Shown here piece after piece: positions 41,982-54,079 of a DNA stretch of 64,000 nucleotides. The notes under the pieces are model-generated. The model made no database searches. It saw only the letters and a program-made list of their open reading frames with translations, and was not told the DNA's origin. Within the stretch, counting starts at the first letter, position 1, and every line of letters begins with the position of its first letter. Origin of the DNA: Piedraia hortae CBS 480.64 (Eukaryota); the NCBI GenBank assembly GCA_010093745.1, contig MU005991.1, forward strand, positions 1-64,000, written 5' to 3'. Position numbers and translations under genes: made by a program.

Positions 41982-44773
41982 CACTGCCAACCCTCTCGCG
42001 TCATGTCACATCATTTTCTCACTCTTTTCACGTCATGTAGCGAGATTTTGTACATCATGTGCCATGATATTGGATGTGACGCAGCAAGATGCGCTACACG
42101 CCTTGCAAAGTCACGCAGCAATACTTGAGACGAGATGCTGCATGACGTGAATAATTTCGCAGCAATATGTCAGGGACTTCTTGGCATCACGCAGCGACAT
42201 GAAAGACAAGATGCAGCATGATGAATAAAAAGCACTAGCAGATGATCAAATCTTACACAGCTATTACTAAATGCCCGAGTATGCTAAGTACCCCTGGGAC
42301 ATAATGGTCACCAGTGATGCCCGCACACTAGCCGCGATTTGTCCACCCTTATCTTTCTTTTTAAGCCACCCAAACTCACCAAGGTCATCGCTCAGTATCT
42401 TGTTCCTGCAAAATGAGTTAGCAACGATGCAGATGAGGCCAAGGGTGTTTCACAACTTACCTTTGTAATGGGGCCAGCGCCTTGTACATCGTATCTGATG
42501 CGTGAAAGAAATCTCTGGAATCGAGGGAGACTTTCTTGGTTTTGTAACGCAGGGCTGGTTAGCATCTCACATGATGGAAATGATATTCGTCGCCACATAA
42601 TGCCGGGCATACCCAAACAGAAGCAGCCTCTCTCTGCTCAGCCGTGCACTGCTAAGCGGTAAGGTCGTTGTCATCGGCAAGAGCCTTGACAACGTCCAGA
42701 AGTGGGTTTTCGAGCACCTTATCCGGGCAAGTCTTCATTTTGGTCAGGTGATCCGACCTGACCCTTCCGACAATTTTGAACACTTCATGGCCTGGCGAAC
42801 TTTAAAAAACTCCCAAACGAACAAAGCCGGCCTACAAATGTCCATCGGTGCGAGGCTCAAATATAACATGCTTTTGCATATCGCAGTCCTTTGGCCACTG
42901 TTCCATTCTTGATGGTCGTAGGACCAAAGCAGCTTTTCGAGCATAAGTTGCCGGCCAGTCTGTCTCATTGTCAGCATGTATCAATGGCAGGCGTAAGATA
43001 TCTACTCACCGTGTTGAAAGAGGAGAGGTGCTCCGCCTTCAATACATTTGCGACCAAGATCGAGACTTGGTCTTTGACTTCGCGCAGCTCTTGGCGCAGC
43101 TCTGCGTTGTAGCGGAGGACTAGTTGCAGCCCTCGCAGTATGAATGAATTCGCGATCACGAGCGAATCTATCCTCAGGAATGTCCTCATGAAGCCTGTCT
43201 CCATGGGATTTGTGCCTTGCACGGATGCAAGGACTTCCTCGGCAGAGGCACCGTTGTTTGGGGCCACTGTTGGCACTTGAACATTGAGATCGTTCACCAG
43301 TATGTCGAGTCTCATTTCACGACCCTGAATCGGCCGAACACCTACAACTTCCGACTGCTGATCAATGCAGGTGGGAGCCTCGCTTGCTCCGCCCGATGGA
43401 AACTCGGCCCTTCCAGGGTCATGAAATTGACGTTTGACTCGGCGATATTCTGCAGCTTCTGCCTGGTGATTCTGCAGACTTCACCATGTGGCCGTGAAAT
43501 CCACGGAAATACTAGTGTCGTACGTGCAATAAACTGCGTGGGTCCATCGACCAAAGCGTGCGCCGTCCTTCCTCATCAGCAGAACTTTAAACGGCTTCCC
43601 GGATGTCGCAGAAGATACGATCCTATGAGTGCCAGAGCACACGATTCTCAACGCTTTTCCCGAGTCTGATGTCAGTCTGGTAGCCGAAAATGCGGAACGC
43701 CTTGCTCCGGGGTTCGTGAAATTCATAACGAAACCACATCTTGCTCGAGCCTTCGTCACGAAATATGGAGCTGGAGTCTCCCAATTCAACATCAATTCCT
43801 GGACGGATGGCACAAGCGCCACAACCACTTCCAAATGGAGCCCTATGGAGGTTTGGTCATTTACTTCTTCCGGGAAGCCACGTGTAGTGAGTACTATCCT
43901 GCATTCGCAACCAATGCAGTACGGTCACTAATGCTTTTCAAGGAAAATTTCCATACCTCCGCCAACCATTTTGTGGCTGTTGGGGCAAGGATGAAGGGCA
44001 ATACCATGATTGATAGCCTCACTCCTGAGTTCGTCCGGCTCCAACGGGGAATCAAAGCTTTTGATCCTCGGCGTAAGAGAGCGCAGGTCGTCTTTGGAGG
44101 GGTTACCATGGCTCTCGCAGATATTCCTGCAGCTTCTGGTGTGATCTCCCATCAGCACACGAGCAACTGCTCTTGCCGGAATTGCTTGTTCAACAAAGCA
44201 AGTGTTACTTCGTGGCAAGATGTGGCTTCGGCGGCAGCACCCAGATCCAAAGAGTACGGACGGGCACTTGAGAGAACTGAGATGGCATCAAGCCACCAAT
44301 TTCCTCACTAAACCACTTGGAAGGATTTGGTCCGCACCAGGATATCCCATTTGAAACATTCCATGGTGTGCCATTGGGGTTTGTCAGAAGCCTCGGGCAT
44401 CGGTCCTTGGATGACCCGACGATTGAGTCGGGCTTTGAGGAGTTGACTCTCTGCTTAGCCTCATCAAACCAGGATGGGATGAACAGTTTTCTGGGCGCGC
44501 AACAAATCCTGCTTTGGAGCAAGTCCGTCGTGGGCTCGGATTTTCGAACTTTGATCGAGATCTGGCCGGCAACATTGGTCTCCTTCTATTCCTCAAGGGG
44601 ACGAACGGGTCCGGTCCGCAGGCTCCTGCTGCTGTGGTGTGTCGTAGCCGATCTTGCCAGAATGATATATTCTAGGCAGATCGAAGACTTTAACCGGTAG
44701 GAAGCACTGTTCAAGCATCGTTACGAACGTATGCTTCCGCATGACGCAGCATCATGCCAGGAGGTTGGCTGTA
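41982..44773. mobile_element. Decayed CACTA/CMC-like DNA transposon (about 2.8 kb) with TIRs and a TA target duplication
   Basis: 41980-42014 matches the reverse complement of 44741-44775 at 24 of 35 positions, ungapped. Starts CACTG and is flanked by TA on both sides. Contains transposase fragments on + (43629-44700) and a broken ORF on - (about 42700-43315). Confidence 0.7.
43629..44700 (+). pseudogene. CMC-like DDE transposase remnants
   Basis: WTDGTSATTTSKW, GIKAFD..ALADIP..CRNC, GFGPHQDIPFETFHGVPLG and KSVVGSDFR in three broken frames. Confidence 0.7.
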
Positions 44774-45827
44774 TAGGCTCGGGCCGCGGGCGGACCGAGC
44801 CCTTCGGCATGACGAAGGGCCCCGAGTCCTGGCACTGTCAAGAGAGAAATATTTTATCTCGATAGCTTTCCGGTCTCAGTCATCATGTGATATGTAATCA
44901 GGCTTGTGAAATTAGTCGCGTATTGACATTGCGTGACTACACTCTCACCGATGTTTATCCCAGCACACTTCCTGACCGCTCCCGAGGGCGAGGTTTCTTA
45001 TCTTATTTTATTGATTTTCTTGACGCGAAGTTCAGTGCCAGAGGCCTTGTACGCTGAAACATCCTGGGCACCTGGGTGTCTTTGCTGGCGTTCTTGTTTG
45101 TCAAGAACTTTCGCAGGAGGAATTTCGGCCAGACCGATCTCATCTGAGGCGATGGCAAGGGAGCGTTTGTGGGAAGAAATGACTTATATGGCACCATGTG
45201 ACATCGAAACGCAAGACCCTATCGCCAACCCACTGAACCAATGGAGATGGTCATGACTTTGAGGTGGGAATGGTAGCTAAGAAAGGAAAGTGGGGAGATG
45301 ATAACCCCACTGCGAAGCTACTCGCTGCGGAAGGTTGGCCGCACTCGCCGAACGTCACGTATACGCAACTGGTATGAGGTCAAGTGCCACGTTGTTTCAT
45401 CCCCTTAACTACGGCCCAAGGACTCTGTGACAAGATGATTAAACCCTGTCGCGATACCTGCTTGGGTTTCTGGTTTCACGTAAATTTCGACCCCAAACTT
45501 CGCCAATTCTTGAAGACCTTGCCTAAGCCTCCCAAATGTACTTCTGGAATCAATACCTGCATTCGCCGTGAGAAATCAATGGGAATGTGATTTGTTCACT
45601 CAATGTCTGCAGCATTTTCAGCCATAGTTTCCGATTCATCTGAAAAATGTTGCTTGCCGAGATACATTGCCAAACCAAAGCCCTTTACAAAATATCTGAA
45701 CAGGAAAAATGAACAAGAGAACGAAAAATCCAAAGTGAAGAATGTTCATGCAGCTCCACAAGTTAAAACTTTTTCAAAGGCATCTTAAGCTCCTCCACAT
45801 CCCCAATCGCCTTTCCAAGGAATAATT

Positions 45828-47366
45828 TCATGGAGACTTTGGCAATAGCTTATTAGTCGACCGCTTCCAGAGTAATGATGGCAAGTTTCGGGCTCGTGGG
45901 GCTCGTGAAGTGTCCTGAAGCGCCCCTTTCCGCCATGCGTCAGTGACCGTCATTCTATGTGGCCCAGGAATGCCATGAATTGAAACCCTCGGGGGCTTCA
46001 CCTCGTGTCCCCGCTTGAACGTTTCCCAGTCGTTCTCGAGATGCGCAACTAACGGAATATGTTTTTGATCAAAATCCTCAAAGACGAAGCGACCAACGCG
46101 ACGGATCCAACGTCCCTTCCCATATGTTTCGTCGTAGTAATGATCTCTGTTGTATCCCTCGTAGAGGGTACCAAGGCCTTTGATTATCCGCTCCTCAAAG
46201 TAGCTGCGGACTCGCTGATTTTCGGGCGAAAGCCTTCCATTTCCAGCATCCTATCGCGAAGGATCAAGAAGATCAACGTCCGTATCAACAACGAAGTCGC
46301 TTCTGACATGCGTCATCTTGTCTTCCTCTGTTCGATCCCATAACCAATACGGCGGCCGCCGCGTAAGCACTGCGGGCACAGCCTCCAAATAGTCCCAGTC
46401 AATGACCATATCAATCTTCCACTCCTGCCGAGGGCCCGATTGAGCGACCATGATATTTCTCGGAAACAGATCCCAATGGTAGAGGATGCCGCTTGAAGTT
46501 GATACAACTTCTGGGTATTGGAATTTAAAGATTTCATGTTCTTCCATCTCGATGCAGATCTTGAGGACAGTGTCCAGTTGGCGTTTTCGCGTAACATCTT
46601 CTTCCTGGTCTATATTGGACCTTATCAACTTGGGAATCAAGTCTGCCAGAGTGTCTAACGTTTCGTCTTCTCTAAGCGTCCAAAATGGCTGTATGTCGAT
46701 TTTGAATTGGGGCATGCTGCCACCAAGAAAGCGTGAAGCCTTGGTAAACATATTGGGCTGTTTATGCGCACACAGAGCGCCGGTACGAGGATACATAACG
46801 CGTTCCATAGCAACCAGGAATCCCACCACACCATCGACGACATTTAGTTTCGCAGGCAGAGTCATGTTGTCAAAAATGTCTTCAAGGCAGATGCCAGAGG
46901 AGAATTCGAGAAGAGTATAGCGACAGTTTAAGGGATTTCCCCTGCTCGCATCAAATGCCAAGAGATGAGGTGCAGGAATCTCGAGTTTTGCCAGAAGCTG
47001 TAGAATTGCCACTTCATCTCGAACCTCGTCGGCAAGGAATGTCTCACGTTCGGGACTGCCTGGCTTCTCTCCCCACCGCGATATGCGGTAGATCCCGTCA
47101 GCTATCCGGTTACCGACTCTCATATGGGCAACAACCACTCGTTTATAAGACCCTCCGTTGTGATGCTGCACCCCTACGCTTTGGAAATGTCCGATGCTCT
47201 CCGTCAGCGCTCGAACTTTGGATTCAAAGGTGCTGTAAGGCTCGTGGTCGGGCCACCGCGTTGTGCTAGTAGAGGATCTGCGAGTTTGTGGGCCGGATGT
47301 AGGCGGTTGGCCGTGCGTTCCCTGCCTGAGACGTCCTCTCAAGTGCTCTGCAAAGTTTATAGCCAT
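45828..47366 (-). CDS. APH/choline-kinase-like phosphotransferase, copy 1; in-frame TAG at 46251-46253 then 140 open codons
   Basis: GGSYKRVV, IPAPHLLAFD, HWDLFPRNIMV (Brenner motif) and IDWD. Translated by hand, the frame stays open from 46250 to TGA at 45828-45830. Confidence 0.85.
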
Positions 47367-47762
47367 GTTAGTTCCACAGTCGTGGGGGCCTGTGAAAAGC
47401 AAGGTGTTGAGGATGCCGAAGGCGAAGCACCGTGTCCCACACTAGAAGGGCTGGCAAAAGTACTGGGAATGAGTTGCAAAGCTAATGCTTTTCTGGAATG
47501 TTGGCTGGTAAAGAAAAGAAACGCTCGCTTGGCAGCGGAAGGTAATAAATGCACACACCCGATGCAATGGCGAAGAGTTATGAGTCACGAATGTGTGCGG
47601 CAAGAGCGTGCCATACACACAACCAATCACTTAAGCCCATCCTTTTGAGTTTAAATTTTGATTACTCATCTATCTTATAGGGTCCAAGACCCCTTCACAC
47701 CAAACACCTTCCTTTTGATCAACATTAGTCCTTCACAACCATTCAAATCTGCCCGAGGCAAC

Positions 47763-49284
47763 CTAGGAGCCATTGCCGGGGCTCCCGTCAGAGTTCATAT
47801 CAAAGTCCAATGCCAGCTGTGCCCATTCCTCTTTCGCTTGATCCAGCAAGCGGAAATTGTCAAAGATGTATCCTGCCCGAGTTTCAGAAATGAGCAGACA
47901 CTCCTTGCGACCATCCAACCTATCCTCGTACCAGAAGACGAATAGGGAGCAACCATACCTGGCGAGACTTTCAGCTGTCTTGCGCGTGCTGCGCTTGATG
48001 GCTTCCATATATTGACTCGACTCCTCTTGGCTAAAGAGGTAAAGAAACTTGGGGAATTTGGCCACAACATCAGAAAGTGTGGGAATGGTTGCGGAGAGTG
48101 CGGTGAGAATGTTTAGCTCATCGCGCATGCCCTGATTAGGGACCAATATGCTGCCACCGTCGAGGAAGAGCGTGTCCTCGAACCCCCTGAGAGTCATGCG
48201 TTTCAATTTCGGCGGCGGGGGGCACCCGCGAAGGAAGATTGCGTCGAGGAATTGCGGGTCGTTGTTATTCTGAGCTCTTCGAGCTCGGTGAATGTATCCA
48301 GACTTTTCAGAGTAGGCTGAAGCTTGTGGATATACACCTGTTCCTGCGGATTATACTGTAGAGCCTTGAGAGAAGATTTCTGCTGGCCAAGAATTGTGAA
48401 GAACCTGTGTAGATCTCCCCACATCAGATCATTGTATGGCTGCGTAGTATGTGTGATGTCTTCGGCGTCCGAAATATCCTCTGGATGCGATTGATCTTCT
48501 CCTTTTCCGTGCATTAGAATTTATACCCATGCCATGTATATTATTTCTCTTGCTTAGCACGAGAGTCTCGAGCGCGCGCGGGAACGACAGAATAGCTTTT
48601 AGAGCTTTGTAGCTGATATTTGCCTCTTCCAGCTTAAGATGCTTTAGCGGCGTTTTGATGGGTACCAGGGCGTCGCAGCAATTGTCTGACAGAATTGCAT
48701 TTACGATCTCTAAACGCTCTAGCGTTGCGTGGGTGAAAAGAGCAGCGTGCCAGTCTTGCAAGGTAAAATAGGCACCATCGCTACCACTCAGATGCAAAGT
48801 AAGGTCAGTGAGGGTAAAGAGCGGCTGTTCCTTGAGGAATCGTGGACAATGGCCGAGGAGTAAAGTGGAGCTTATCAAAGGTGCGAACAGGAAGTAAGGG
48901 TCGCAGCCAATTGACTGGAGCTCCATCATAGGAATGTCCAAGATAATGGTCAATATACGGGCTCGTGATGGTGAGGCATTTCAGCCTTGGCGTTCATGCC
49001 AGTAGTTCTCTCAGAAGGGCAAAATTGTTGCAGCCATCAATCTTCAAGCGAGCTTCGATCGACTTGATAGCGCTCTTTCGAGCGGGACGGGCTTGGAGTG
49101 CCTTCAGCAATGCATTAAGTTGCGCCGTAGTCGTTAACGAAATTGACTGGTAAGTCGTGGGTTCCGCAACTTCCTGGAAACGCTTGCAGGTGAGAAAGAG
49201 ATTTCTCAATGTCTTGTCGTTGTGTATGTATTTGGTAATATGCAGGGGTAATTCATTGGGTCGTGCCACCAGTATTGCGGCCAT
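47763..49284 (-). pseudogene. F-box pseudogene, paralog of 26443-27998
   Basis: Shared strings APLISSTLL, EQPLFTLT.LTLHLSG, KTPLK.L and ILSFPRALE. TGA at 48994, frameshifts near 48895 and about 48210. Confidence 0.85.
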
Positions 49285-50244
49285 TGTTGGTGGAACTAAT
49301 GCGTTAAGCAGAAAAGGTTCAGGCGGCAATGCTCGTTAAGCGGCGTCTCGGCGCTATGACTGGAAACTGGTCGCCTGGTGACATGATTGGCAAACCAAGT
49401 TGCGGACCTCACAGGTTTTGGAAAGTTAATGTGTATGGCAGCTTGAAAAGCAATTGTGCACTAGGAAAACAATACTGTGCCCGCGCAAACGCACATGGAT
49501 AGCTGAAGCGGGGCTTGGAACATGTATCGCCGCCTTGCGCCATGATTGGCTACTGAATTGCACGCTAGCCGCCTAAACTTGTGATTGGCCGACAACACAC
49601 TTTGCAGACAATCGTCGACTCGACTCGATGCATTATAGCTATATACCCTTTGTGTGGTTTCCAAGGACTGTACAGCCTCTTATCGGCTTATTGAAGTACT
49701 TGAATTACGATGGACTTGAGCTCCTCTTCTAGAACCTTGGGAAGACGGGCTGATATCAGACCGTGAACCCGCCAGTACACCAAATGAGAAATCGGCGCAG
49801 AGAGATGATCTCAAAGACCAGAAAGCACAAAGGATGATCTCTATCTAGGGACGCCTCCACGCCTATCAACCGCTATCTATGGCAAGAGGCGTCGACTCCG
49901 ATAAAGCAGTGCTGTCTCATGTTTGGAGTCATGTCCGGAGACAAGCTGTTGAACACCTCCCCGTGAAGCTGAGCAGTTACAAACCCCCTGCCAAGCTACC
50001 CCAATGCGGATGATCGGCCGCACTCGCCGACGTCGCTATGCACGCACAAATGCAAGGGGTAGAGTGCCCGTGACTGATCGTCTCTGAAGCGTCCAAATTT
50101 TCGCGCTCGCGAAGGGATATCATGTCATTTCCAAAGACGTTGAAGAAATCAATAGTCATGAATGTCCATACAACTACAAGTTAGAACTTGCTCACAAATA
50201 TCTCAAGTTCCTCCACCTGCCTCATCCACTTCCAAAGTGTAATC

Positions 50245-51792
50245 TCATTGAGACTTTAATCTCAATCCGTGCTTGAGCGTGCGCTTCCAAAGTACTGATA
50301 GGTAGTCACGGGCTCCAGGCTTTCGGCCAGGGTTCCCAAACATTTCCTTCCGCCACGCCTCTGTAACTGTCATCCTGAAGGGCCCGGGTTTGCCAAAAAG
50401 TGGAAATTTTGGGGGGTCCACTGGGTGTCCCCGCATGAATGTTTCCCAGTCGTTTTCGAAGTGCGCAATCACTGGGATGTAGCTTTCACTAAGATTGTCG
50501 AATGCTAGGTGGGCAAGGCGACGAATCCAACGTCCTCTCTCATATGCTTCGTCGTGGTAATCTTCCTTGGTGTAATTCCCGTAGATGTCCCCAAGTCCTA
50601 GGATTAATCGCTCTTCAAAGTGGTTGCGAATTTGCTGGTCGTCGGGCGAAAACCTTTCGTTTCCAGCGTCCTATCGCGAAGGATCAAGAAGGTCAATGTC
50701 CCGGCTAACGGCGAAGTCGCTTCTAACATTGGGCATCCTATAGATATCTTCCCGGTCCCATAACCAAAAGGGAGGCCGCCGCGTAAGTACCGCAGGTACA
50801 GCTTGCACATGATCCCAATCAATGACCATATCAATCTTCCACTCCTGCTGAGGGCCCGATTTAGCGACCATGATGTTTCTCGGAAACAAATCCCATTGGT
50901 GCAATATGCTGCGCGAAGTCGATACATTGTCCTTGTGTCGAAGATTAAAGATGCCATGTTGTTTCATCTCATTGCTAATTTTGCAAACATTCGCCAGTAA
51001 GCGGCTGCCCGTATCACGGTCTTCCCCCTCGAATCTGGCTTTTAGCATGCTGGGCAGGTAATCTCCCAACGAATCTTCCATATCGACGTTTCCAGGCACC
51101 CAAAACTCCTGTATGTAACGCTCGAACTTGGGCAAGCCGATATCGAGAAAAAGCGAGCCCTTGATAGCCATGCCAGGCTCATGAGATGAAGTTATTATTC
51201 CAGTAAGAGGGAACGTAACGAGTTCCATGATGAGCAGGAATTCCACTATTCCGTCGACGACATTTAGTTTCTCGGGTAGAGTCATACTGTCGTAAATATC
51301 ATGAAGGCGACAACCGGACGAGAGGCTGGTCAAGATGTAGCGACAGTTCAAGGGGTTTCCCCTGCTTGCATCAAAGGCGAGGAGACGGGGCGCAGGAATG
51401 CTGCGCCTTGCCAGCAGCTGCAGCACCGTCACTTGATCCTGAATATCGTGGCCAAGAATCTTCTCTCTTGCGTCCAATTGTGGCTTCTCATCTGCCCGCG
51501 ATATGCGGTAAACTCCCTCAATTTTCTGACCACGTGCTCTCAGATGGGCAACAACCACTCGGTTAAAGGTCCCTCCCTTGCGATGCTCCAGCAATATGCT
51601 CTCGAAGTTCCCAATGCTCTCGGTCAGTGCTTGCACCTTGGGCTGGAATGTCGCGTAAGGTTCGTAATTGGGCCTGTACCGATCTGTAGAGCGGGTCCTA
51701 CGAGGTCTGCGGACGGGAGCAGCTAGCTTGTCTGCATCAGACTTGTTCCGCGTGAGACTCCCTCTCAAGCGCTCTATGATATTCATGGCCAT
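50245..51792 (-). CDS. APH/choline-kinase-like phosphotransferase, copy 2; in-frame TAG at 50671-50673 then 141 open codons
   Basis: GGTFNRVV, IPAPRLLAFD, WDLFPRNIMV and IDWD. The frame is open from 50670 to TGA at 50245-50247 and includes ORF 50245-50472. Confidence 0.85.
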
Positions 51793-52534
51793 GTCAGTTA
51801 ATAAATCGCGGGGCTTTGTGAGAATCAGAGATGTTGATGAAGTCCGAAGTAAATCAACTAGGCTGGCAGGGATACCAAGGCAAGACCTGCTGGCAATAAC
51901 TCGTAGACGGTACTGCTCTCTTGAAATGTACGCCGGTGAACGTGAAGCTTCTCAATAAGATAACACTGGTTTGACGTCGAAAAGTAATAACTGTGAGGCT
52001 TTCACGGAAAGTTGTGATGTGTGCGGCGGCAGCCCCACATGCAGCTTCGTAAGGAAGGCGCATCCTTCGCATCATTTTGGCCCAAAGTAAACTGCAAGTC
52101 AGCAGCATTTAAGCATACATGTTTTCGATGCAATTCCTACATTTCACGCAGCGAAGAAAAACGTGACTGTCGAATTTATGAATAATCATATCGCTGTTGT
52201 TTCCTGCATATAGAGCAAGGTCATCTGATTACACAAAAAACATCTCCAAGTCCAGAGACCCTTTCCAGTATGCTCAATAGAAACAATCTCGATATTTGAC
52301 GTTGAGTAACGACACTTGGCCTGTCCCAGGGCTTGGAGGTCGGTAAGCCAAGCCAGCTCGCTTCCGCGTACACACGCGAACATTTGTCATGCAAACACCC
52401 AGTTCACATCATTTCAATAACGAAACCACCAGCCATGACGTAGGGCATTCATCTGGGCGACCCGCTTAACAGCTGACACCAAAACAACGTGAAGAAAAAA
52501 ACCGAGAAAACATTTACGCATTACAACCTCTCAA

Positions 52535-53873
52535 TCAAGCTCCTTCACTCCCAAACCCCTTTGTCCAAGCTTCATTCCTCTTGAGGTCCTCGCTACTAAC
52601 CGTCGGCCTTGACGCCTTGATAGCTTTGACAAAATCCTTGAGCTGTAACGGCGGTTCCAGTAGCTTATCACTGTCGACCTGTGTCCAGTCCATTTCCATC
52701 GCATCTTTATCCCCCGGAGAGCACGGGGTAAGCTTCTCCTGCCCATTAACCACAACCTGCGTAGTACATCAGCTGTGCCAACCCCAACCAAAAAACTCCA
52801 CAAACCTTTTTATAATGCGTCGCCATCTGTATTTTCCTTATAGGCTGCATAAGCGCATCCTGCACCGCAATCGTAATATCCGAGCCCGAATACCCCTCCG
52901 ACAACTTCGCCAGAGCCTTAAAATCTTCCGGTTTAAGCTCACACGGCGTGGTCCCCACCGCAAGTTCCAACATCCTCGTCCTGGCCGGCATATCCGGGAG
53001 GGAAATATGCACTCTCCTCTGAAACCGTCTCCTAATTGCCGCATCAAGCTGCCACGGAATATTCGTCGCCCCCAGGATCAACACACCCGTCGAATCCCTC
53101 CCCACCCCATCCATCTGCACCAACAACTCCGTCTTAATCCTCCTTGAAGCCTCCGATTCACCCTCCCCGCGCGGCCCACAAAGCGCATCAATCTCATCAA
53201 TGAACACAATACTCGGCTTATTCTCCCTCGCCATAGCAAACAACTGCTTAACCAACCTCTCACTCTCCCCCATCCACTTCGACACGAGATCCGACGACGA
53301 CACACTAAAAAAGGTGCTATTCGCCTCCGTCGCAACCGCCTTCGCCAGATAACTCTTCCCCGTCCCCGGTGGCCCATAGAGGAGTATCCCCTTCCAAGGC
53401 TGTCTCTTTCCCGCAAAAAGATGCGGAAACTTCACCGGCAAAATCACAGCCTCCTTTAAGGCCTCCTTCGCCCCTTCCAAACCCGCAACATCCTCCCACT
53501 TGATATTCGGCTTATCTGTCAAAATCGCCCCAGCCAGCGCGCCCCGGAGTTTCTTATTCTCTGCGTCGTCGTCTCCTTCATTACCCCCTGTCTTCCCTCC
53601 CACAGTAGCAGCAGCAGCAGCAGGAGTTTTCTTTTTGACATCCTGCTCATGGAGATGTTGTTTAAGTTTCTCCGCGCGCTCCATGTACTCTGCCGCTTTC
53701 TGGCGAATCATTTCTTTCGATTTGGCGTTTTTTTCCCATTTCAGGGCCAGCATAAAGAGTTCAAGGGCTTGGTAGTACAGCCGGTATGCGGAAGAGTAGT
53801 CGCCGGCCGTATCGTGTTCAATGGCTTTTTTGACTTGCTCAATCGCCCGGCCGAGGAAGTCAGTGTTGGACAT
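52535..53873 (-). CDS. VPS4: AAA ATPase Vps4 (intron 52757-52805)
   Basis: MIT domain, [30 protein letters not shown] and terminal FGSEG. Confidence 0.97.
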
Positions 53874-54079
53874 GTTTGCTGAGGAGAACTACACGCTTGC
53901 GCGTGGGTTGGGTGTTGGCGTCGTCGTTGCCGGGTTCGTCGAGACTTGCTTGATTGGGTTAGCAGGGGAGGAGTAGGGTTAGGGCAGAATGGAAATAGGT
54001 GGATAGGGTTAGGATGAGAGCGTCACATTGCATCACGTCAGGCAGTCAGAGATGAGCTGCCGACGATTTGAAGAGGACA

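Follow-up and report, generated by a model that had tools for sequence, protein, structure and literature searches.

Two tandem kinase-like genes of the fungus Piedraia hortae share an in-frame TAG stop codon, and the open reading frame (ORF) beyond the stop is under selection in both. The genes, here called A and B, lie 4.4 kb apart in a 64,000-nucleotide stretch of DNA (the window), which covers positions 1 to 64,000 of the forward strand of contig MU005991.1 (GenBank assembly GCA_010093745.1). By the protein names of its matches, the window comes from P. hortae CBS 480.64, a Dothideomycete of the order Capnodiales. We tentatively favor, at somewhat less than even confidence, the explanation that A and B are functional genes whose full-length product is made by post-transcriptional or translational bypass of the UAG. 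Under this proposal, A and B would still be selected as full-length proteins of approximately 512 residues with the APH kinase fold, and their common UAG would be bypassed after transcription. The mRNAs would be made unspliced and, in bulk, unedited, and full protein would be produced only when the UAG is decoded as sense. The two genes are a good candidate for recoding, not a demonstration of it.

The reading frame beyond the stop

Window coordinates are used throughout, and all features described are on the minus strand. The pre-stop part of gene A (46251–47366) starts with the ATG at 47366 and has 371 codons plus TAG; it includes the PF01636 match and the catalytic motifs HWDLFPRN and IDWD. 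The in-frame TAG of A (46253–46251) is followed by G and falls in a column with Tyr or Trp in homologs. Its post-stop ORF (45828–46250) has 140 open codons and ends at a TGA (45830–45828). The pre-stop part of gene B (50671–51792) starts with the ATG at 51792 and has 373 codons plus TAG (50673–50671), which is also followed by G, and its post-stop ORF (50245–50670) has 141 open codons and ends at a TGA (50247–50245). Translated through the stop, A and B have 269 identities over 505 residues (53%) with two gaps, and both stops share one column. Nucleotide identity is 67%; that is, 33% of bases differ. The post-stop alignment has a single in-frame one-codon gap near the C-terminus and no frameshifts, and the terminal TGAs are aligned. 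The initial annotation had reported the shared TAG, the open codons, the aligned TGAs, and extensions that align without frameshift, and its coordinates and frames were exact. In the public protein models, the same lesion is handled in two ways. P0004, the model of A, has 371 aa and is cut at the TAG, and P0005, the model of B, is identical to B at 502 of 502 residues, minus 13 codons including the TAG, which were assigned to a 39-nt "intron."

The ratio of nonsynonymous to synonymous substitution rates (dN/dS; NG86, A vs. B) is 0.48 in the post-stop stretch, with a bootstrap 95% range of 0.29–0.77 and values of 1 or more in 2 of 1,000 resamples. The pre-stop ratio is 0.44 (0.34–0.58). Other estimators gave 0.44–0.53 before the stop and 0.48–0.68 after it. 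Differences between A and B by codon position follow the same pattern in both parts (44/32/53 post-stop and 116/99/153 pre-stop). When the 130 differences were randomly re-placed over the 420 aligned post-stop bases, a mean of 3.8–4.1 new stops appeared, and only 1.1–1.8% of re-placements had none (20,000 trials per direction). The remaining two frames of this stretch contain 4–7 stops. No frameshifting indel is present in the 420 post-stop nucleotides, while 1-nt and 2-nt indels occur within approximately 110 nt beyond the TGAs, after which the alignment is lost.

Comparison with stop-free homologs gave a similar picture. In 17 outgroup homologs, 21 post-stop columns are conserved; of these, A keeps 17, B keeps 14, and the uninterrupted P. 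hortae paralog P0006 keeps 17. Mean post-stop identity to the 17 outgroups is 0.352 for A, 0.353 for B, and 0.347 for P0006, which indicates no acceleration after the stop. Judged by these sequence comparisons, the tail appears to have evolved like the remainder of the protein and like the stop-free copy. The signature of a decaying pseudogene (dN/dS near 1, frameshifts, and several stops) is absent, as each copy has one stop and no frameshift. The earlier view that neutral decay of the extensions is unlikely therefore agrees with the post-stop dN/dS, which is not near 1. A very recent pseudogene would pass the dN/dS and single-lesion tests too. Independent translation of the tail was also considered and rejected; neither A nor B has an in-frame ATG that could open the conserved post-stop part.

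Gene A matches Pfam family PF01636 (APH) at 35.5 bits (gathering cutoff 23.2, E = 1.2e-8). B alone has no Pfam match at E ≤ 0.1, yet it has the 53% identity to A over 505 residues given above. The AlphaFold2 model of A read through the stop has a mean predicted local distance difference test score (pLDDT) of 82.6 and a predicted template modeling score (pTM) of 0.81. It places four post-stop helices within residues 373–455, with pLDDT >90 over residues 381–451, and residues 461–512 are predicted to be disordered. The top 50 chains found with VIA-align are all of APH, MPH, FN3K, or steroid-kinase type (Z 14.9–16.8, 260–312 residues aligned). The aligned range on the model extends from residue 41 to approximately 450 and reaches the targets' own C-termini. 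The catalytic motifs HxDxxxxN and DWD are all upstream of the stop, and the last quarter of the fold is downstream. According to the model, the TAG cuts the canonical APH fold short, and the post-stop part corresponds to its last four helices. Catalytic residues D299, N304, and D323/D325 of A are invariant or near-invariant in the family. B retains the catalytic D and N and the DWD motif, and Gln replaces a near-invariant His. At residues ~298–300 (50890–50900 region), B reads ILHQWDLFPRN, whereas the sequence in A and in at least 90% of homologs is ILYHWDLFPRN.

Termination at the UAG would yield a product of 371–373 residues without the last four helices of the fold, which is probably inactive, so the stop would act as a strong attenuator or gate. 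The initial annotation had proposed a short (about 372 aa) and a long (about 513 aa) isoform of a possibly toxic kinase. Without these helices the short form looks like a truncated protein, and nothing found indicates toxicity. A functional truncated protein, with a downstream ORF conserved for a non-translational reason, is highly improbable. All catalytic motifs are indeed encoded before the stop, and noncoding sequence (a 55-nt patch and the first ~100 nt beyond the TGAs) is conserved as well, so RNA-level constraint does exist at this locus. However, the post-stop stretch is protein-like in its dN/dS, its codon-position pattern, and its lack of frameshifts. Its residues also match those conserved in stop-free homologs, and it corresponds to C-terminal helices found in every aligned APH structure.

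Transcripts and splicing at the stop

Two sequencing runs cover the stretch. X1 is a DNA run from which the assembly may have been built, and X2 is RNA by guess only. X2 was taken as RNA-like because it has a 46-nt GT..AG skip that is not in X1, contig breaks between genes, and varying depth. The stage of the sample is unstated, X2 depths were not used for ranking genes, and the X2 contig consensus hides minority variants. One unbroken X2 contig covers gene A (44949–47635) and another covers gene B (49888–52009); both match the window at every letter and pass the TAG without a joint. The contig over A continues past the 46-nt skip to approximately 44760, and the gaps in X2 cover are at 47636–47706 and 49596–49887. 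X1 and X2 both read TAG in both copies, with no differing letter across 7.6 kb. An assembly error behind both TAGs, which had been raised as an explanation, is thus unlikely.

Because the X2 contigs are colinear over both TAGs, neither a 57-nt nor a 39-nt intron is removed constitutively, and A>G is not the majority state in that sample. The initial annotation had suggested looking for A>G at 46252 and 50672; none is present in the contigs of this one run, where minority variants would be hidden. The skip is a 46-nt GT..AG intron, starting with GTGAGA, at 44903–44948, approximately 880 nt downstream of the TGA of A. With this intron, the A transcript would have a spliced 3′ region of approximately 1 kb containing no ORF of at least 80 codons. 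Such a layout is usually a mark for nonsense-mediated decay.

Splicing could in principle remove the stop in both genes. A candidate 57-nt in-frame intron, in which the AG of a TAG serves as acceptor, is present in A (GTCAGA..TAG, 46251–46307) and in B (GTTAGA..TAG, 50671–50727), and the public model of B uses a 39-nt intron (50671–50709). The product would be short of 13–19 residues in a surface loop, and these include the model's one low-confidence stretch (residues 348–360). Both copies have GT..AG ends, the verified intron in the same transcript is itself only 46 nt and starts with GTGAGA, and a minor isoform could escape the contigs. Against this, both X2 contigs pass straight over the TAGs with no joint at any of the three candidates, while the same A contig shows the true 46-nt intron elsewhere. 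The donor has a pyrimidine at its third base, and the one verified intron is longer than 39 nt. The 19 codons of the candidate intron are also coding-like (74% residue identity, dN/dS 0.39–0.57), and they encode family-conserved residues including the near-invariant D363, D365, P369, and R371. A constitutive 57-nt intron, which the initial annotation had named as a competing explanation, is not present in these contigs, and the 39-nt intron in the public model of B is without support from them. A rare or condition-specific in-frame intron is very unlikely.

Origin and possible bypass of the stop

The residue at the TAG column was surveyed by BLASTP in 158 database proteins, of which 143 have alignments to A that include this column. 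They have Tyr in 64, Trp in 24, a gap in 43 (one of which is B's own public model), and other residues in 12 (Gln once); the query had Trp at the stop position, which may bias distant alignments toward Trp. Besides the public model of A, which ends there, none of the 158 proteins has a stop at this column. In 28 metagenome loci of distant relatives, 26 span the column (Tyr 10, Trp 6, Lys 2, gap 8, and stop 0). All close relatives carry Tyr, including the P. hortae paralogs P0006, P0013, P0039, and P0162, and the TAG thus derives from TAY via a transversion. General reassignment of UAG was rejected. In a count that is not genome-wide, 7 ORFs were interrupted by TAG, 12 by TGA, and 1 by TAA, with every piece 100 codons or longer. 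Only A and B are clean two-piece TAG-split ORFs. Pyrrolysine and selenocysteine at UAG were set aside on general grounds, as the host is a fungus.

The P. hortae copies form one clade (100/100 support), and its inner branching order is not resolved. A clade of A and B costs 0.51 log-likelihood units and is not rejected (approximately unbiased test, p = 0.46). A and B have a common tail (GPxRMTVTxAWRK..LWKR; approximately 50 residues), which neither P0162 nor the P0006 model has, and approximately 100 nt of common 3′ flank that is not found in P0006 or P0162. Together with the tandem position and the aligned TGAs, the common tail and flank favor direct tandem duplication, with a single origin of the TAG before it. 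The flanks right after the TGAs (45726–45827 and 50146–50244) are approximately 78% identical, which is above the coding region, and contain 1–2-nt indels. Beyond approximately 100 nt past the TGAs, the only alignable flank is a 55-nt patch in the 3′ region of A (45303–45356) that is 82% identical to 49982–50034 of B, at a different distance from the stop. The flank and the patch are possible shared 3′UTR elements.

Both copies may instead be young pseudogenes, in which the TAG arose twice, or once with very short gene conversion, and nothing passes the stop. We consider this a serious and only slightly less credible explanation. The inner order of the P. hortae clade leaves A and B not shown as a clade, a fresh stop would leave the downstream selection signature intact, and the TAG lies within a 23-nt block identical in A and B, which is what micro-conversion would leave. 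However, this block is unexceptional, and no gene-conversion footprint was recognized at the TAG. The longest identical block elsewhere is 30 nt, runs of at least six identical codons number 9 where 6.0 are expected (p = 0.06), and A and B use the same codon at 63.6% of positions with the same residue. From these comparisons, the 23-nt identity does not appear unusual for A and B. Use of the same codon within 15 codons of the stop (17 of 20, vs. 143 of 232 elsewhere; Fisher p = 0.051) is suggestive only. Synonymous differences flank the TAG on both sides, and local dS is 0.43–0.59, so any shared tract would be old. Gene conversion between sequences that are 67–80% identical is expected to be very rare. 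An identical TAY to TAG transversion as the only lesion in each copy has a rough chance of ~0.3–1%, given ~190 one-step nonsense paths plus indels. The likelihood of the coincidence needed (parallel transversion, or conversion over no more than 23 nt) was put at about 1%. Both A and B still have cover in the RNA-like X2.

If the stop is bypassed, as we favor, one route would be ribosomal readthrough. Taken separately, this route is unlikely. Its hallmark, protein-coding conservation beyond the stop, is present in A and B. At the stop, A reads UAG-GAU-GCU and B reads UAG-GAC-GCU. In yeast, Gln, Tyr, and Lys are inserted at UAG (PMC4150775). By the yeast rules, UAG-G favors tRNA-Gln (PMC6614816), so readthrough of A and B would yield mainly Gln and not Tyr.

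A second route would be condition-specific adenosine-to-inosine (A-to-I) editing of UAG to UIG, which would be read as Trp, an aromatic residue natural at this column. We consider this route unlikely too, and marginally more so than readthrough. A-to-I mRNA editing is documented in Sordariomycetes and Pyronema, and other classes are left to be determined (PMC11156358). In Fusarium graminearum, 71 UAG-interrupted "pseudogenes" are rescued by editing and are often expressed unedited in hyphae; their TAG often goes back to a codon other than TGG, and cases of parallel origin at a single site were seen (PMC10776026). U at -1, a favored +1 base, and placement in a hairpin loop are reported Fusarium editing preferences (PMC9600606; PMC11156358). 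Both TAG sites have U at -1 and G at +1, which is automatic for UAG. In folds of 61-nt segments (30 nt on each side of the A of the UAG), the UAG is predicted to lie in the loop of a hairpin in A (46233–46272; z = 0.09 vs. shuffles, closing pair G-U) and in the 6-nt loop AUAGGA of a hairpin in B (50651–50694; z = -1.21, closing pair G-C). The initial annotation had named UAG to UGG editing, along with ribosomal readthrough, as a known route. Trp does occur at the column, but Tyr is commoner, so editing would not bring back the ancestral residue. A bypass by some other, unspecified route is quite improbable.

Several observations weigh against bypass, whichever route is considered. No direct sign of it was seen in the X2 contigs, and the contig consensus, from one sample and with minority variants hidden, has no A>G at either site. 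Known leaky readthrough motifs include UAG-CARYYA and UGA-CUAG, and the stop contexts of A and B match neither. Shuffled sequence folds about as well as the 111 nt downstream of the stops (z = -0.70 and 0.29). Gln occurs at the stop column in just 1 of 143 homologs, and in yeast tRNA-Tyr reads UAG only before C (PMC6614816). The Dothideomycete host is outside the lineages with shown A-to-I mRNA editing. No editing was seen in Aspergillus nidulans or Botrytis cinerea (PMC11156358), and the Ame1-Tad3 interaction behind editing is reported to be a novelty of Sordariomycetes (PMC11087585). That the UAG sits in a predicted loop counts for little, because 32–35% of all A and 43–45% of A after U in these mRNAs are in loops, and shuffled sequence gives hairpins of similar energy. 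The whole gene is under fairly loose constraint (dN/dS about 0.45). B is without some near-invariant residues (His to Gln in HxD and GKG to ERG) and keeps fewer conserved post-stop columns than A (14 vs. 17 of 21).

Broken relatives also count on the side of inactivation. The public models P0012 (290 aa, ending in SILYH) and P0162 (164 aa, starting with MVIDWD) are both on one 424,068-nt contig. They look like a third paralog that is split at the Trp of HWDL, and the lesion between them may be a stop at that Trp codon. P0012 ends right before this Trp, which is invariant in the family, and P0162 is well conserved with Tyr at the TAG column. P0025 is without the HWD and DWD motifs. Of the 28 metagenome relatives, 6 have in-frame stops, and TAA, TAG, and TGA all occur among them. 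One of these loci (L016:1544–1546) has a TGA at the Trp of LYHWDLEPRN, where P0012 ends, and a TAG further upstream. P. hortae has a genome of 16.95 Mb with 7,572 genes, which is the smallest genome and the fewest genes among 101 Dothideomycetes (PMC7082219). This suggests ongoing gene loss, in which fresh dead copies are expected, and together with the broken family copies it makes recent double inactivation possible.

Bypass and double inactivation are thus nearly even: the former, as mid-fold recoding outside the editing fungi, has a low prior, and the latter needs a coincidence of about 1%. The recoding switch proposed by the initial annotation had a sound basis in the shared UAG and the conserved, selected ORF, and it left the serious rival of recent double inactivation unweighed. 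It had also noted that recoding would be new if the host is outside the known editing lineages. The host, a Dothideomycete, is indeed outside them. A wider form of the editing proposal, in which P. hortae edits UAG to UGG at a sexual stage or under some condition and A, B, and perhaps the split paralog are editing-gated, is improbable. If true, restorative mRNA editing would be recorded in Dothideomycetes for the first time and would have one more independent origin among fungi.

If the stop is bypassed by any route, A and B would give a clean example from nature of a stop conserved within an enzyme fold and kept by two old paralogs in a fungal class without known mRNA editing or mid-gene readthrough. 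The question of which Pezizomycotina classes edit mRNA (PMC11156358) would then become testable at two named nucleotides. If both copies are freshly dead, they would be an instructive false positive, as downstream selection does not prove recoding when the stop may be young.

Neighboring features and known systems

Between A and B is a broken F-box-like/LRR gene (47763–49335) with at least four ORF pieces and stop-to-stop ORFs in at least three frames. Its F-box-like and LRR Pfam matches are both under the gathering score. Given the colinear X2 cover, it looks like a transcribed pseudogene, so the F-box pseudogene of the initial annotation is plausible on the evidence of its frames, with Pfam matches that are subthreshold. 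A Vps4-like AAA ATPase gene with MIT, AAA, and AAA-lid domains (52746–53888) adjoins the locus, and an X2 contig of much higher depth begins near 52325. No tRNA genes were found in the window, and an Rfam search of 44500–52300 at E ≤ 0.1 gave no matches.

In overall fold, the model of A resembles APH(2'')-Ia/-IVa, APH(4)-Ia, 3dxp, FN3K, and MPH (Z 15–17, 270–297 residues, 8–14% identity). Like aminoglycoside and macrolide phosphotransferases, A and B have the HxDxxxxN and DxD motifs, and A has the PF01636 match. Unlike them, A and B belong to a fungus-specific family with a long insert, a disordered N-terminal region, and a tail specific to A and B. Nothing found points to drug modification by A or B.

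Fungal readthrough reportedly described by Freitag et al. 2012 produces cryptic peroxisomal targeting; the stop is said to be at the natural end of the protein, in a UGA-CUA-type context, and a short signal is added. As in that system, decoding by a near-cognate tRNA, a longer protein, and an unedited mRNA are proposed for A and B. Unlike in peroxisomal readthrough, the UAG-G of A and B is inside the catalytic fold, 140 codons before the end, and has no known leaky context.

Premature stop codon (PSC) genes of Fusarium and Neurospora, including PUK1, AMD1, and the 71 PSC genes, are corrected by A-to-I editing at the sexual stage and also have an in-frame UAG in a conserved ORF (PMC10776026; PMC11156358; PMC4817773). 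A selected downstream part, unedited transcripts, and a TAG that a single change can produce from a codon other than TGG are further likenesses. U at -1, G at +1, and a predicted loop position are present too, although the two bases are automatic for UAG and many other A in these mRNAs lie in loops. The premature stop of PSC genes is reported to be always UAG and never UAA or UGA, and the stop of A and B is UAG as well. A and B differ from PSC genes in their Dothideomycete host, in that no A>G was seen, in the ancestral Tyr where editing would give Trp, and in a stop common to two old paralogs. In FgDBF2 (PMC13123824) and Neurospora Sk-2 rfk-1 (bioRxiv 10.1101/2020.12.30.424869), a UAG sets short versus long product, as proposed for A and B. 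The DBF2 extension has 24 disordered residues and destabilizes a complete kinase (PMC13123824), whereas the predicted extension of A and B would be a folded, ancestral part of the enzyme.

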